Source: Veillonella parvula (lineage in GTDB: Bacteria > Bacillota > Negativicutes > Veillonellales > Veillonellaceae). From it: 64,000 nucleotides of DNA. The stretch is taken from positions 484,462-548,461 of the forward strand of contig NZ_JAGZIJ010000001.1 in NCBI RefSeq assembly GCF_018366295.1, written 5' to 3'. Below, in pieces: positions 17,451 to 51,346 of the stretch (positions are counted from its first letter, which is position 1; the number at the start of each line of letters is the position of its first letter). The notes beneath the pieces are model-generated. The model did not search any database. It was not told the origin of the DNA and saw nothing but the letters and a program-made list of their open reading frames with translations. Both the position numbers and the translations under genes were made by a program.

Positions 17451-17626
17451 AAAAAAGCCCCACCATGCCGTAATGTACCGCGTTTTGATCCTGCAAGGGC
17501 AGGTGGGTGTCCTCCTCATCCTGCAGTTGTCCCGTAAGGGCGTAACGTTCAGACGAGAGTTCAGACTCCCAAAGTAAATGTGTTGGCTCAAAACTGCGAT
17601 ATCACACGCACATGGCAGGGATATCT
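17451..17626 (-). ncRNA. ssrS: Candidate 6S RNA (SsrS-like structured small RNA), about 175 nt, in the aspS-rarA intergenic region
   Basis: No plausible CDS here; the 80-aa ORF at 17415..17657 has junk composition. The 5' end (CCCUGCCAUG) and 3' end (CAUGGUGGGG) of the minus-strand transcript pair over 10 bp, and this extends into an imperfect roughly 12 bp stem (GUUUUGAGC / GAUCAAAAC). A U6 tract follows the 3' arm. A promoter-like TTG...TATTTA lies upstream. Position just downstream of aspS matches where B. subtilis 6S-1 (bsrA) is located. Confidence 0.5.
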
Positions 17627-45111: not shown

Positions 45112-45606
45112 TTACCAAATATAACCTTGTTGTTCATCATCTTTACGCCATAACAAACCATGCACAATAGCGCCTAACAAGCCATTCCAGAACATCACGG
45201 GTAATACCATATGCCACAAGTATAGTCCAAAGTGCAAATCGCCACCACTAGCTAATATCATAAAGCTACGAATAACGCCATCTAGCAGCGTACAAATAGC
45301 TACTATACCACTAGACCAATACCAGCGTTCTTCATAGATACGATGCTTTACGGCAGATAGTAGGTATACCACAATTACGTAAGGGAATAGATGGAGCCCA
45401 AAAAAGTTAGATATCAATACATCATGTACGATACCCCCAATAACAGCGGATATCAGCCCCATACGACGACCTTTAAATAAAGTAATCATAACAATTATCG
45501 TCAAAATTAAGTTTGGTAACCAATTTGTATGGAAAATAGTAGGCAATAATTGCGCTTGTATAAAATATATTAAAAATCCAGAGAGAGCTAAAGCTAGACG
45601 CATCAT
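45112..45606 (-). CDS. mreD: Rod shape-determining protein MreD
   Basis: 164 aa polytopic membrane protein immediately after mreC. Confidence 0.8.
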   Translation of the reverse strand: MMRLALALSGFLIYFIQAQLLPTIFHTNWLPNLILTIIVMITLFKGRRMGLISAVIGGIVHDVLISNFFGLHLFPYVIVVYLLSAVKHRIYEERWYWSSGIVAICTLLDGVIRSFMILASGGDLHFGLYLWHMVLPVMFWNGLLGAIVHGLLWRKDDEQQGYIW

Positions 45607-46520
45607 TGTTTAACGGCCCCCTTTGCACCCTCTACTTGATCTCGTTGTGTTTGAGGCACAAGTTTAGGCTCAAGTTCTGGTTTTTGTGGTGCGCTTAGAG
45701 AAGACGAGGTAAGCACAAAAACTTCTTCTAAACGATGAAAATCTACACTCGGTGTGACTACCGCATTTTTAACAAATCCTTCCGAATCATTTTCGATAGA
45801 TTGCACGTTGCCAACAGGTAGACCTTTCGGATAAATGCCTCCATATCCAGAGGTAATCAACTTATCACCTACCAATACATCACCATCGCGAGCAATATTT
45901 ACCATAGATGGTGTACGAGGTGTATTGCCATTACCTTTTACAACGCCAGACAAACGAGATTCAGGTCGTTGTACAAGGATACCTATTGCGCTACGCGGAT
46001 CAAGAATGGTTTGAACGCGAGCAGAATGCGGATATACATCTGTAATAAAACCAACGACACCACTAGGTACAACAACAGCCATATTAACTGCCATACCTTC
46101 TTCACTCCCTTTATCAATGGTGAAAGTATTTGTCCAAGTACCGTAATCCTTTGTAATGATACCTGCTAAGGTCATGGAGAATTCTGGATGGCTACTCTTA
46201 TAGTTTAAAAGCTGACGAAGGCGAATATTCTCTGCCACTACTTCATCGTAGTTAACTACCTTTTGTTCCAATGTAGCTTTACGAGATGCTTCCTCTTCGC
46301 GTTCGATAGTAGAGAAAATAGCATTATTAAGTACTGTAAAGCTAGTTTGGACGCCCTCTAATAAACGAGCTGACCCATAAGAGAAAGGCGTTGTAATTCC
46401 TTCAAGGGTAACCGTAACAAAGGGAATACTAGTCCGTTGCTTCCACGCAAAGCCGAGCAATGACATTAGGATACAACCAATGACAACGATGATAATTAAC
46501 TTTTTATCTGACTGTATCAT
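45603..46520 (-). CDS. mreC: Rod shape-determining protein MreC
   Basis: 305 aa with an N-terminal TM segment, a coiled-coil and a beta domain; follows mreB. Confidence 0.88.
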   Translation of the reverse strand: MIQSDKKLIIIVVIGCILMSLLGFAWKQRTSIPFVTVTLEGITTPFSYGSARLLEGVQTSFTVLNNAIFSTIEREEEASRKATLEQKVVNYDEVVAENIRLRQLLNYKSSHPEFSMTLAGIITKDYGTWTNTFTIDKGSEEGMAVNMAVVVPSGVVGFITDVYPHSARVQTILDPRSAIGILVQRPESRLSGVVKGNGNTPRTPSMVNIARDGDVLVGDKLITSGYGGIYPKGLPVGNVQSIENDSEGFVKNAVVTPSVDFHRLEEVFVLTSSSLSAPQKPELEPKLVPQTQRDQVEGAKGAVKQ

Positions 46521-46521
46521 G

Positions 46522-47559
46522 CTAGTCTCGGCCCTTTCTATTCTTAGAATTTACAATAAAACGCGATAAGCTCACCAAATCAGATGAGGCCCCATTAAGG
46601 CCTACCACAACTTTTGTTTCAGGTGCTTCAGGAACGTGAACAGGTACACCTACTTCAGTACCAATCCGATCCGCTAATCCAGATAGTCTTGCTGTACCGC
46701 CAGTAAGCCATATGCCATGTTGCATAATATCAGCCACGATTTCTGGTGCCGTAGCACGAATCATTTGCTTAACCTCATCCAAGAGTCCTATCAAACATTC
46801 ATTTACAACTTGGTACACTTCAGATTGATGAATCACACAACGTCTACCTAAGCCGTTCATCATATCGCGCCCTTGAAAGGCATACTCTGCATCCTCTAAA
46901 GGAGCGACAGCTGTTCCTAATGTATGCTTAATATCTATTATAGTTTCATCAGATACGATAATGCCAAAACACTCACGCACATAGCGTAATAAGGCATTAT
47001 TAATATCAGAACCACCAAAACGAATTGTTTTGCTATCTACGATACCACCTAAAGAAACAATCCCCATATCAATAGTGCCACCGCCGATATCAATAATCAT
47101 AGATCCTTGTGCTTCAAAGATAGGCACACCACAACCAATAGCAGCCGCCACAGGTCGTTCGATAAGAAATACCTCTCGAGCACCAGCTTGAATAACAGCA
47201 TCCATCATGGCTCGTTGCTCAACATCGGTCATCCCACAAGGAACCCCTACGACAACGCGGGCTCGACGCAATGCATTAGACACCTTATTAAGAAAGTAGC
47301 TAAGCATAGTATGCATAACGCGATAGTCAACTATAAATCCATCCTTTAAAGGCGTTAACGGACGCCATATATCGGGCATGCGCAATACGAGGCGCGCCGC
47401 TTCATCACCAACGGCTACTACTTTTTCTTGTTTTGTATCAGTTGCTATAATCGATGGTTCGCTTATAACAGTCCCTCGCGTCCCCCCCATGAGGCGCGTT
47501 TGTATGGAACCAATATCTATACTTACATCTTTTCCTAGAGTAGGTAAAATGGAACTCAT
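46522..47559 (-). CDS. mreB: Actin-like rod shape-determining protein MreB
   Basis: 345 aa actin-fold ATPase (DIGGGTIDMGIVSLGG); SD AAGGAG 9 nt upstream. Confidence 0.95.
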   Translation of the reverse strand: MSSILPTLGKDVSIDIGSIQTRLMGGTRGTVISEPSIIATDTKQEKVVAVGDEAARLVLRMPDIWRPLTPLKDGFIVDYRVMHTMLSYFLNKVSNALRRARVVVGVPCGMTDVEQRAMMDAVIQAGAREVFLIERPVAAAIGCGVPIFEAQGSMIIDIGGGTIDMGIVSLGGIVDSKTIRFGGSDINNALLRYVRECFGIIVSDETIIDIKHTLGTAVAPLEDAEYAFQGRDMMNGLGRRCVIHQSEVYQVVNECLIGLLDEVKQMIRATAPEIVADIMQHGIWLTGGTARLSGLADRIGTEVGVPVHVPEAPETKVVVGLNGASSDLVSLSRFIVNSKNRKGRD

Positions 47560-47838
47560 AGTAATTTCTCCTTCATTACATCATCATTCCATTTTACCAT
47601 ATATAACGCGACTTTTTCCATTGATATCAGTACCTTTCCTTTTGTTAAAAGCACAGATAACGCATAATCCCTGTACTCATAAGTCATACATAAAAATTAC
47701 ATAACTTCATACATACAATCTCATACACAATAAGGAAAAGCACTCATTTATAGGAACTTACCCATGCGTCAAAATTAGGTATAGTTCAAAATGAATGCTT
47801 TTAATAATCTTACTTGGCTTTGTTCAGTTTATTTAGGC

Positions 47839-48537
47839 TCAGCTCAATTTACCAATTTCGCTGAGGCTCGTAAATTCATTATCCCCTATAACAATATGAT
47901 CGAGTACAGGAATCCCCATAAATTGACCAGCACTAACAAACATTTTCGTTAGCCGTATATCTTCATCACTTGGTCTACTATCACCTGACGGGTGGTTATG
48001 GATTAGGATAATAGCCGCTGCATTGCATGCTATAGCTTTTTTAAATACTGCTCTTTGCTCTACAAGACTTGATACCAATCCACCATTAGAGATATGTTCC
48101 AACTGAATAAGCTTATTTCGAGATGTTAACATGGCAGCCCACACATGTTCCACATCTTCGTGACGCAGTCGCTCCATCACATATTGAGCTATTACAAAAG
48201 GTTGCGAAAAATCTTCATAAGTCTCTTTAATCTTAAGCTCCCCTAGACGCCTACCCATTTCAAGTGCTGCGCATAGCGTCACTGCTTTATCTCTACCAAT
48301 ACCCTTGATTTTGATTAGATTATCTACGGTCATTCGGTTAAGACCATATACGCCATCATCAAAGGATTGTAGGATATCACTTGCCAAAGAAATCGCAGAT
48401 TGCCCCTTTACCCCTGTGCGCAATAAAATAGCCAACAACTCCTCCATTGCCATATGTGAAGGGCCTAAGGCGAGAAATTTTTCTCGAGGGCGCTGGAATG
48501 GTAGCATATCTTTTACACTTACTGTTGGTACTTCCAT
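47839..48537 (-). CDS. radC: RadC-like JAB/MPN domain protein (UPF0758). Start chosen at MEVPTVSV; the ORF extends to 48579
   Basis: HhH N-terminal region plus the JAMM motif HNHPSGDSRPSDED. Confidence 0.85.
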   Translation of the reverse strand: MEVPTVSVKDMLPFQRPREKFLALGPSHMAMEELLAILLRTGVKGQSAISLASDILQSFDDGVYGLNRMTVDNLIKIKGIGRDKAVTLCAALEMGRRLGELKIKETYEDFSQPFVIAQYVMERLRHEDVEHVWAAMLTSRNKLIQLEHISNGGLVSSLVEQRAVFKKAIACNAAAIILIHNHPSGDSRPSDEDIRLTKMFVSAGQFMGIPVLDHIVIGDNEFTSLSEIGKLS

Positions 48538-48615
48538 AGAATCTCTCCATTCAAATAGATAACACCATTTGTAAATCAAACAATAAACACATCTACTCTC
48601 TTAAAAATTATTTAG

Positions 48616-48680
48616 CACAGCACAGCACAGCACAGCACAGCACAGCACAGCACAGCACAGCACAGCACAGCACAGCACAG
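48616..48680. repeat. Perfect pentanucleotide microsatellite (CACAG)13, 65 bp, between maf and radC
   Basis: Seen directly at 48616-48680; flanked by G on the 5' side and C on the 3' side. Confidence 0.95.
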
Positions 48681-48714
48681 CCAATTATATCACTATCTGT
48701 CTAATACGCTAGTA

Positions 48715-49281
48715 CTATTTTGCCCCTAACGCCTTGCACAGTTCCTCGTATACATGTTCAACTGGTAACCCTACCACATTAGTATAAGAGCCCTCTATTT
48801 TATCTACCCATAATGCACCTTTTCCTTGGATGCCATAAGCTCCAGCCTTATCCATCGGTTCCCCACTAGCAATATAAGACTCGATTTCAAAGGGTGCTAA
48901 TTGTTTAAAATATACTTTTGTTTCATTGTGAAAAACTATCTCCTCCCCTTTGATGAGTAACGCGACTCCAGTGATTACAGAATGTGCTCTACCCGATAAA
49001 TGCTCCAACATATGGCGTGCATCGGATTCATCATGTGGCTTTCCTAATACTTTATTATCAAGGACAACAATAGTATCTGCGCCTAACACAATACTTCCGT
49101 CTGGAACACCTACAGCACAACGAGCCTTACCTAATGCTTGGGCTTTCACCATTTCAATAGGGTTGTCGTAACCCTCATTAGATTCCTCATAAGTACTGGA
49201 TACAACAGTATGATCAATCCCAACCTGTGTTAATAATTCAGTTCTACGTGGTGATTGACTCGCCAAATATAATCCAGCCAT
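48715..49281 (-). CDS. maf: Maf-like nucleoside triphosphate pyrophosphatase (septum formation protein Maf)
   Basis: 188 aa beginning LYLASQSPRRTELL, with a Maf/Ham1 fold. Confidence 0.9.
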   Translation of the reverse strand: MAGLYLASQSPRRTELLTQVGIDHTVVSSTYEESNEGYDNPIEMVKAQALGKARCAVGVPDGSIVLGADTIVVLDNKVLGKPHDESDARHMLEHLSGRAHSVITGVALLIKGEEIVFHNETKVYFKQLAPFEIESYIASGEPMDKAGAYGIQGKGALWVDKIEGSYTNVVGLPVEHVYEELCKALGAK

Positions 49282-49367
49282 ATACGCTCCTTCGTATTAA
49301 AAAACTTGTACATAAAATTCTTGGTATAACTAAACTATCCTGCCTATCCCCCAGAACTTACCATCCC

Positions 49368-49988
49368 TTACATAGTTGTTCCTTTATCTTCTTCTGAAGA
49401 AATTAATCTTTCATAATATTCTTGTACATCTTCCCCATGTTTTACCGCATCAGCTCGCACCGCTGCATAAAATACAATATCCGCTTGAGGCACACGAATA
49501 CGGCCAGGCACATGCTCTTCTAATATTTCAAAGAATCTATCGTCGGCTTTCAACAACAAACGGCCATTTTTAACTTTATTTCCATCTACAATAGAATACA
49601 CAAGAGACCAAATCGGGCGCGGGTCAGAGGTAGAACATTTTCTATATTTATAGCGGTATTTAATATTTGTCAACAACTCACGTTCAAACTTGAACACCCC
49701 ATCAATCATGTTATAATCTACTTCAAAATGACGATTTCTAAAGATAGAGTTCTCTTCAATCACAAGCTTTGTATCTGTCAAAATATATGTATATCGACTA
49801 ACAGCCTGTTTAACCATAACAATGATGGCCATGATTTCAATAAAATACTCAGCTAATAAAACCGTATGTAATTGAATACTGCGATACGTTGTATAAGCTG
49901 CTGCACACAACAATAAAATCACAAAAAATACTACCAATAACTCTGCACTTCTGGTGCGCTGAGATTTTTCTTCATATAATACTGTCAT
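49368..49988 (-). CDS. Hypothetical membrane protein (two N-terminal TM helices plus a cytoplasmic domain)
   Basis: 206 aa ORF with coding-like composition. No family recognised. Confidence 0.4.
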   Translation of the reverse strand: MTVLYEEKSQRTRSAELLVVFFVILLLCAAAYTTYRSIQLHTVLLAEYFIEIMAIIVMVKQAVSRYTYILTDTKLVIEENSIFRNRHFEVDYNMIDGVFKFERELLTNIKYRYKYRKCSTSDPRPIWSLVYSIVDGNKVKNGRLLLKADDRFFEILEEHVPGRIRVPQADIVFYAAVRADAVKHGEDVQEYYERLISSEEDKGTTM

Positions 49989-50140: not shown

Positions 50141-51346
50141 TTATTTTTTCAACGCTGCTGTAATACGTTGAGTATCACGAGCAATCATGATTTCTTCGTT
50201 TGTAGGAATTACGAAGATTTTAACCTTAGAGCCTTCAACACTGATTTCTTGTTCTTTACCACGAACATTATTGCGTTCAGAATCAATACGAGTACCTAAG
50301 TATTCCAAACCATTACAAATTGCATCGCGGTTACCGATACCGTTTTCACCGATACCTGCAGTAAAGATAATAGCATCTACACCGCCCATAACAGCCGCAA
50401 AGGCACCGATTACACGGCGAACTTTGTAATGGAACATATTCAATGCCAATTGTGCGCGTTTATTGCCGTTAGCAGCAGCTTCTTCAATCACACGGAAGTC
50501 ATTGGATACACCAGAAATCCCTAATACACCGGATTCTTTATTCATAACTCTATCGATTTCTTCATAGGTCATACCTGTTTTTTCCATCAAGAATGGAACG
50601 ATAGCAGGGTCAATATCACCTGTACGCGTACCCATGATCAAACCGGACAATGGAGTAAAGCCCATTGTAGTATCGATGGAGCGACCACCTTTAATAGCAG
50701 CCACAGAGGAACCATTACCCAAGTGGCATGTGATGATACGAAGATCAGTCATATGTTTACCCATTAATTCTGCACAACGTTGCGCTACATATTTATGGGA
50801 TGTACCATGGAAGCCGTAACGACGAATACCATAATCTTCATAATAAGAGTAAGGAAGCGCATACATATATGCTTCTTTTGGCATAGTTTGATGGAATGCA
50901 GTATCAAATACAGCAACTTGAGGTACATTTGGCATAATAGCTTCACAAGCTTCAATACCTTGAATGTTTGGTGGGTTATGCAATGGTGCAAGAGAAGCAC
51001 ATTCTTCCAATGCTTCCATAACTGCTGGAGTAATCAATACGGAATCAGCAAATTTTTCACCGCCGTGTACTACACGGTGACCTACAGCATCGATTTCATC
51101 CATGGAAGAAATAACACCAAATTCAGCATCAACTAAAATATCTAGCAAAATGCGAAGCGCTTCTTTATGGTTCAAAATTGGTTCAATGCGTTCTAATTTA
51201 TCTGCATTAGGACGTTTGTGAGTGAAGATAGCATCTTGATCACCAATCTTTTCAAAAAGACCTTTTGCCAATTCTGTTTCAGTTGTCATATCAAGTAATT
51301 GATATTTCAAAGAAGAACTACCGCAGTTAACTACTAATACGTTCAT
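50141..51346 (-). CDS. ackA: Acetate kinase
   Basis: 401 aa beginning [17 protein letters not shown], with the acetate/propionate kinase fold. Confidence 0.95.

Follow-up and report, generated by a model that had tools for sequence, protein, structure and literature searches.

A hypermutable pentanucleotide repeat upstream of radC in Veillonella and its possible role in tuning radC expression

A perfect 13-unit pentanucleotide repeat is present upstream of radC in Veillonella parvula, and comparison of public genome sequences showed that 5-bp units are gained and lost at a rate well above that of point substitution in the surrounding DNA. Both the repeat and its hypermutability are solid. By analogy with transcribed repeats in other bacteria and from RNA folding models, we propose that this hypermutable repeat, probably at the start of the radC leader, tunes radC expression in a graded manner through leader length and a 5' hairpin, a reading to which we assign a probability of roughly 50%.

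Within the 64,000-nucleotide stretch of V. parvula DNA that was analyzed (hereafter, the window), direct reading found (CACAG)13 without interruption at 48616-48680, which on the gene strand is (CTGTG)13 at 48680..48616. Tandem Repeats Finder placed the array at 48614-48681 and counted 13.6 copies of a 5-bp period, matching at 100% and free of indels. Both approaches thus bore out an earlier description of the locus from its letters alone (the sequence-only reading), which had noted a perfect (CACAG)13 between maf and radC. That reading had also considered a 65-bp repeat improbable by chance, and a 15-mer of the repeat indeed had no match in 100 dinucleotide-preserving shuffles. Within the 64-kb window the same 15-mer matched inside the tract only, and Tandem Repeats Finder detected no other tandem array of more than four copies there. 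With its 13.6 perfectly matching copies, the array is a long perfect tandem of a unit in the 1-9 bp range, as is typical of simple-sequence-repeat contingency loci.

The tract lies in a maf-radC-mreBCD cluster in which the neighboring genes are all on the minus strand. The features of this region, in window coordinates, are as follows.
50141-51346, minus strand: ackA
49368-49988, minus strand: gene for a 206-aa protein, function unassigned
48715-49281, minus strand: maf, 188 aa (PF02545)
48684..48692, minus strand: predicted P1 promoter with the extended -10 element TGATATAAT (from sequence reading and cross-species conservation)
48614..48681, minus strand: pentanucleotide simple sequence repeat (from direct reading and Tandem Repeats Finder)
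48538..48613, minus strand: non-repetitive radC leader, holding AGAGAGTAGATGTGT (48587-48601) and GGAGAG (48543-48548) (from alignments)
47839..48537, minus strand: radC, encoding a 232-aa RadC-like JAB-domain protein (PF20582 UPF0758_N and PF04002 RadC)
45112..47559, minus strand: mreB (46522-47559), mreC and mreD, downstream of radC
Beyond mreD, minus strand: PBP2-type gene

Read on the gene strand from maf to radC, the region runs maf-TAG ... GTGATATAATTGG (CTGTG)13 CTAAATAATTTTTAAGAGAGTAGATGTGT ... GAATGGAGAGATTCT ATG, with the maf stop codon 33 bp before the tract. The downstream gene encodes a RadC-like JAB protein, as had been recognized earlier: PF20582 and PF04002 both match its product, and the translation contains HNHPSGD, which has the form of the HxHPSG motif. 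The tract had, however, been placed only 36 bp from radC, and this distance was wrong. It was counted from position 48579, which is merely where a mechanical open reading frame begins (the first TTG after a stop codon), whereas 10 public gene calls start the 232-aa RadC at ATG 48537, behind the Shine-Dalgarno sequence GGAGAG. With the true start at this ATG, the distance from the end of the tract to the start codon downstream is 78 nt.

A consensus scan of 47400-49500 predicted no terminators between maf, radC and mreB. The tract would also be part of a maf-radC read-through transcript. The gap between radC and mreB measures 279 bp (47560-47838) and contains a promoter-like TGGAAA-18-TAAAAT with a TG at 47620-47591; since no terminator is predicted in this gap, read-through from the radC promoter into mreB is possible. 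The same spacer carries an imperfect 22-bp tandem repeat (47676-47725, 2.3 copies). In more distant Veillonella, whose RadC is 64% identical to that of the window (L216-L219), a gene for an ECF-transporter S component (2322-2945) lies on the opposite strand between radC and mreB, so the two genes are not one transcription unit throughout the genus.

The number of repeat units ranged from 4 to 20 across GTDB Veillonella species representatives and further contigs, as counted in public assemblies of isolates, complete genomes and metagenomes. Ten contigs encoding a Maf identical to that of the window had near-identical flanks and yet carried 5, 5, 7, 10, 10, 11, 11, 11, 15 and 15 units. The count differed in 17 of the 18 locus pairs that had no mismatch over 4.4 kb of flank, and in 46 of the 48 pairs with at most one mismatch over the same distance. 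Pairs with identical flanks among isolates and complete genomes included SKV38 (n = 15) versus LFYP99 (n = 13) and CLA-AA-H2 (n = 13) versus NSJ-78 (n = 12), and GCA_046985265, with 7 units, formed such a pair with the window itself (n = 13). When 5 kb of flank was aligned with gaps, the mean count difference was 2.5 units at <0.1% divergence and saturated at 4.5-7 units at all divergences above 0.1%. Because near-identical flanks accompany differing counts, the tract must mutate far faster than its surroundings. The tract is therefore slippage-prone, as had been anticipated, with a length that differs among strains whose flanks are otherwise identical; a length invariant across strains, which the sequence-only reading had named as an outcome that would speak against it, was not what we found. 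Length polymorphism among very close strains, seen here in 46/48 pairs, is likewise a property of contingency loci.

Some of these counts have to be read with the assembly method in mind. One metagenome pipeline yielded mostly 10-12 units, a pattern that matches collapse at k = 55 (11 units = 55 bp), and on account of this probable collapse the apparent modal count of 11 is not to be trusted. At least 10 contigs of metagenome-assembled genomes begin inside the tract (L011, L023, L033, L035, L036, L040, L042, L045, L053, and L055), and four scaffolds have gaps of 100 Ns at it (L229, L230, L235, and L238). Contig breaks and N-gaps of this sort are expected for any repeat that exceeds the assembler k-mer, and they are also compatible with length change within a clone. 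Together, the dominance of 10-12 units in that pipeline and the interrupted assemblies could suggest that length variation is an artefact of short-read and metagenome assembly and that the real tract is stable. Against this stand the megabase contigs and complete chromosomes, which differ among themselves with 7, 10, 15 (SKV38, LR778174) and 18 units (UTDB1-3, CP019721), and the isolate drafts, with counts of 5, 7, 8, 10, 12, 13, and 15. Moreover, loci with identical flanks yielded counts on either side of 11. The complete genomes exclude a pure assembly artefact, and a stable tract whose variation is only apparent is extremely unlikely.

Among loci with an assembled maf-radC intergenic region, the tract was present in every one whose RadC is at least 96% identical to that of the window. 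The carriers are V. parvula, V. hominis, V. rogosae, V. dispar, V. infantium, V. fallax, and further species. Tract and TATAAT were both absent from two uncultured species with a RadC 94% identical (L054 and L060) and from V. denticariosi (89%; L056 and L215), and the tract was also absent from relatives with a RadC 83%, 81% or 64% identical. The maf-radC distance is 33 bp in V. denticariosi and about 80 bp in L054 and L060. One locus with a RadC 81% identical (L212) has TGCATAATTGACTGACATACAG at about 1440-1465, the place matching the -10 element and the repeat; this sequence may represent the same promoter without the repeat, before microsatellite expansion. Presence at ≥96% and joint absence of tract and TATAAT at ≤94% identity, apart from this proto-site, point to a single gain kept through speciation; on the simplest history that these sequences suggest, the tract was gained once and then retained while at least six named species diverged.

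Over this history, the period and the repetitive nature of the tract have been conserved better than the exact unit. Variant units include (CTATG)12(CTGTG)3 in L039, an internal (GCCGT)4 in L045, and two GCTGA in L062. The tract of L231 is the only decayed one, and no lineage has fewer than four units. Among the matches listed by a metagenome scan for (CTGTG)6, most were unrelated contigs (median GC 0.49); Veillonella was represented by a single additional locus (L094), and one look-alike (L113) came from unrelated DNA. These matches are thus uninformative on other copies in Veillonella genomes. The look-alike lies at 1-70 on the minus strand of contig Ga0208620_1002099 (47% GC), which ends in TTGTATAATTG(CTGTG)12. 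An extended -10-like motif thus directly precedes an identical pentamer repeat on this unrelated contig, whose end truncates the downstream gene.

A repeat of another kind occurs elsewhere in the window, in the HIGH_NTase1 (PF05636) gene at 52085-53419 on the plus strand. Its Thr/Ser/Asn-rich low-complexity insert contains 6-bp tandem repeats at 52782-52816 (CAAATT x2.5 and CAACTG x3.8). The window's version of the product has 444 aa, and those of other V. parvula contigs have 435-449 aa; these differing lengths suggest that this coding repeat, too, changes in frame from strain to strain.

The TATAAT reported earlier to lie immediately upstream of the tract on the radC strand is real. It occupies 48684-48689, with a TG at 48691-48692, so that the -10 element ends 3 bp upstream of the tract. 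In an alignment of the spacer between maf and the tract, G-nTATAAT was invariant in 10 of 10 species-level haplotypes, mostly in the form TGnTATAAT; between the maf stop codon and the -10 element, 7 of 24 columns were invariant in the 10 haplotypes. A TATGAT variant occurs within species at two loci. No -35 element is recognizable for P1, which is why a consensus promoter scan did not call it. Alone, TGNTATAAT was found nine times in the window against 7.5 expected and is thus not rarer than chance, so the case for a promoter rests on its conservation and not on the motif. With a -10 element ending at 48684, transcription is predicted to start at about 48676-48679, inside the first repeat unit. 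Since the conserved extended -10 is upstream of the tract and no terminator is predicted after maf, the tract would belong to the leader and not to a spacer: it most likely makes up the initial 20-100 nt of the radC leader rather than a -35/-10 spacer, a position that we consider probable. The repeat accordingly sits where contingency repeats are found, inside a gene, promoter or leader: a conserved -10 precedes it by 3 bp, and the radC ATG follows 78 nt later.

The position of the -10 element also bears on a different explanation, in which 5-bp steps alter the spacing or the helical face of promoter elements or regulator sites and thereby cause on/off phase variation. A 5-bp unit corresponds to half a helical turn, AT-rich -10-like hexamers occur just past the tract in each haplotype, and the conserved AGAGAGTAGATGTGT after the tract could be an operator. 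These hexamers, however, are not conserved in sequence and differ between haplotypes (TGATATAGT in the infantium type, for example), and the haplotype alignment contains no conserved -10 at a fixed distance downstream of the tract. The sole conserved -10, TGnTATAAT, is upstream of the tract, rather than separated by it from a -35 as in a promoter-spacer switch, and no -35-like hexamer exists within the repeat unit. Nor does any -35/-10 pair straddle the tract, which at 20-100 bp among strains is far outside the range of any such spacer; for these reasons we do not uphold the earlier suggestion that unit changes alter the spacing of promoter elements. Furthermore, both odd and even counts are found among isolates (12 odd and 6 even). 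A switch based on promoter spacing or helical phasing is therefore improbable.

The preferred reading, in which repeat number tunes radC expression, takes another route. P1, as a -35-less extended -10 promoter, would direct transcription from within the first unit, and the radC mRNA would then carry the tract as its initial 20-100 nt. As in-silico folding and analogy suggest, unit count would then set the length of the leader and the size of a 5'-terminal G.U-rich hairpin, which could alter mRNA stability or processing (decay, RNase III). The outcome would be heritable, reversible and graded differences in RadC among cells of a lineage, possibly extending to mreBCD by read-through, and the tract would act as a rheostat rather than as an on/off frameshift switch. 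Graded tuning, or no effect at all, appears more likely than on/off phase variation. Among the options raised by the sequence-only reading, an effect on UTR structure is a plausible one that fits the anatomy of the locus.

Folding predictions gave mixed results for such a role. The (CUGUG)13 RNA self-folds at -21 kcal/mol (z = -5.6 versus shuffles) into a hairpin of 4-bp blocks of G-C and G.U pairs, and the predicted stability of this hairpin is linear in n, at about -2 kcal/mol per unit. The self-folding of (CUGUG)n ranked 60th among 208 pentamer units and is unexceptional, and the (CUAUG)12 variant found in one species folds more weakly (-14 kcal/mol). For n = 0-21, the predicted probability that the Shine-Dalgarno sequence and AUG are unpaired remained constant (0.44-0.46). 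The models thus gave no sign that the tract occludes the ribosome-binding site, and this mechanism was rejected in silico.

Several further candidates were considered at the locus. Single-stranded DNA hairpins as drivers of slippage were rejected, with folds of -3 and -1.3 kcal/mol that were worse than those of shuffles. An intrinsic terminator composed of the tract hairpin and a U-run was rejected as well, since the U-run lies at a distance of 8 nt and other species lack it, and so was a conserved upstream open reading frame from the ATG in AGAGAGTAGATG, whose length and frame vary between haplotypes. Past the tract, Veillonella species with and without the repeat share a conserved AGAGAGTAGATGTGT (48587-48601, minus strand), which did not occur beyond chance elsewhere in the window. 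Folding models pair this motif with TCTAT at the start codon; compensatory changes were not seen in any of 10 haplotypes. Rfam searches gave no match at the locus, either in the scan of the whole window at gathering thresholds or in that of the locus at E ≤ 1. The sole Rfam match in the window is the 6S (SsrS) RNA gene at 17453-17624 on the minus strand (89.7 bits), which has the extended -10-like TGATACTAT upstream.

We also considered that the tract might act by its sequence and not by its length, either as a periodic protein-binding array in RNA or DNA or by encoding a leaderless, GUG-initiated (LCCAV)n peptide. Every unit contains a GTG, the predicted transcription start is at or near one, and mechanical open reading frames of 21 and 27 aa cover the tract. 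A period of 5 nt is the spacing of some ring-shaped RNA-binding proteins, which would favor a binding array. The putative peptide has no Shine-Dalgarno sequence, and all three frames stop within 15 nt past the tract, so a change of frame would have no downstream consequence. In addition, CTATG replaces the unit in L039, the tract matches no Rfam family, and no candidate binding protein was identified. Overall, a sequence-dependent role is very improbable.

Of greater weight is the serious rival that the tract is a neutral hypermutable microsatellite, which originated once beside an internal promoter and persists by slippage with no meaningful effect on expression. Consistent with this reading, the predicted accessibility of the ribosome-binding site is independent of n, the strength of the hairpin is unexceptional, and radC is a housekeeping-type gene. 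The locus also tolerates unit variants, such as (CTATG)12 in L039, (GCCGT)4 in L045 and the interruptions in L062 and L231, and the range of 4-20 units has no clear preferred length once the artefactual peak at 11 is discounted. Other observations are harder to reconcile with neutrality. The 64-kb window has no other long perfect repeat; the tract has been kept through at least six named species, with no lineage below four units and only one showing a decayed tract (L231); it falls right on the predicted +1 of a conserved promoter; and comparable transcribed repeats affect expression in other bacteria. We regard neutrality as a realistic possibility. In favor of graded tuning of radC we count the uniqueness of the tract, its retention across species, the conserved promoter, the scaling of the hairpin with n, and the precedents. 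The same proposal is weakened by the lack of a -35 element, the n-independent accessibility of the ribosome-binding site, the unexceptional hairpin and the weaker fold of (CTATG)12, and also by the fact that radC is not a typical contingency gene of the kind that encodes surface structures or restriction-modification systems.

Among known repeat-based systems, Neisseria opa carries a coding-region pentanucleotide repeat, (CTCTT)n, that acts by frameshift. The Veillonella tract resembles opa in its pentanucleotide unit and high-frequency length change, but differs from it in being non-coding, with stops in all frames just after the tract. In promoter-spacer repeat switches, exemplified by the TA repeats of Haemophilus influenzae hif and the homopolymers of Neisseria porA and opc, the tract lies between the -35 and -10 elements. 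The likeness to hif, porA and opc consists in an intergenic repeat beside core promoter elements that is subject to slipped-strand mispairing; whereas one unit shifts promoter strength in those systems, the Veillonella tract comes after the -10 and exceeds the length of a spacer by far. Switches of this type have been described as a class (PMC12721329).

Closer parallels come from repeats in 5'-UTRs. The (ATCTTTC)n repeats of H. influenzae hmw1A and hmw2A lie in the 5'-UTR, are transcribed, fold, and are cut by RNase III, and hmw1A expression falls as the repeat count rises (PMC12721329). As at hmw, the Veillonella repeat is intergenic and, as predicted here, located in a leader behind a conserved promoter; short-read assemblies break at both loci, and their counts are widely spread in nature (PMC12721329). 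Folding of the repeat-region RNA is part of the mechanism at hmw and is predicted for the Veillonella tract, with the difference that ten hmw repeats pair with a separate G-rich downstream arm while the Veillonella tract pairs with itself through G.U wobbles (PMC12721329). Our folding analysis accordingly found only self-pairing and a separate downstream hairpin, and not the two-arm RNase III substrate specific to hmw. The systems differ further in unit, copy number and target, hmw having a heptamer in 11-63 copies before an adhesin gene and Veillonella a pentamer before radC (PMC12721329). By analogy with what has recently been shown for hmw, the instability of the tract might itself depend on transcription or RNA structure.

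The second parallel is the AGAT tract in the 5'-UTR of Moraxella catarrhalis uspA2, which has 6-23 copies with an optimum of 18 (Attia & Hansen 2006, J Bacteriol 188:7840, via PMC4679880). At uspA2, as here, a short-unit repeat is situated between the transcription start, which in our case is predicted, and the start codon, and its copy number is strain-dependent (6-23 there versus 4-20 here; PMC4679880). The effect at uspA2 is described there as graded and free of frameshift, whereas the graded effect at radC is proposed only (PMC4679880). The uspA2 locus differs in its tetranucleotide unit, its proteobacterial host and its surface protein target, and both the transcription start and the dependence of expression on the repeat were measured for uspA2 and are inferred for radC (PMC4679880). 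A further difference is that the Veillonella tract begins at the predicted +1 itself. Taken by its sequence-level features, the locus qualifies as a simple-sequence-repeat contingency locus and resembles the uspA2/hmw class of 5'-UTR repeats. In the papers that we searched, we found nothing on repeats or phase variation in Veillonella, on phase variation of radC, or on transcription-start maps of V. parvula.

What is known of repeat-driven phase variation comes largely from pathogens such as Haemophilus, Neisseria, Campylobacter, and Moraxella, and it largely concerns surface and restriction-modification genes. The hypermutable tract reported here belongs to an abundant human commensal, precedes a conserved gene of unknown function, radC, and persists across species. 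A bolder interpretation would see in it the first contingency-type locus described in Veillonella or the Negativicutes, a fast-mutating, heritable dial at the +1 of an internal promoter in a core operon that adjusts the dose of RadC, and possibly of read-through MreBCD, and is kept by selection in at least six human-associated species; we consider this rather doubtful. In practical terms, the length of the tract can serve as a marker at strain level, and short-read and metagenome assemblies of Veillonella repeatedly break at this site. If its length does tune expression, the naturally occurring variants would constitute an allelic series for probing RadC function, and contingency-type regulation would reach core operons in the Negativicutes.
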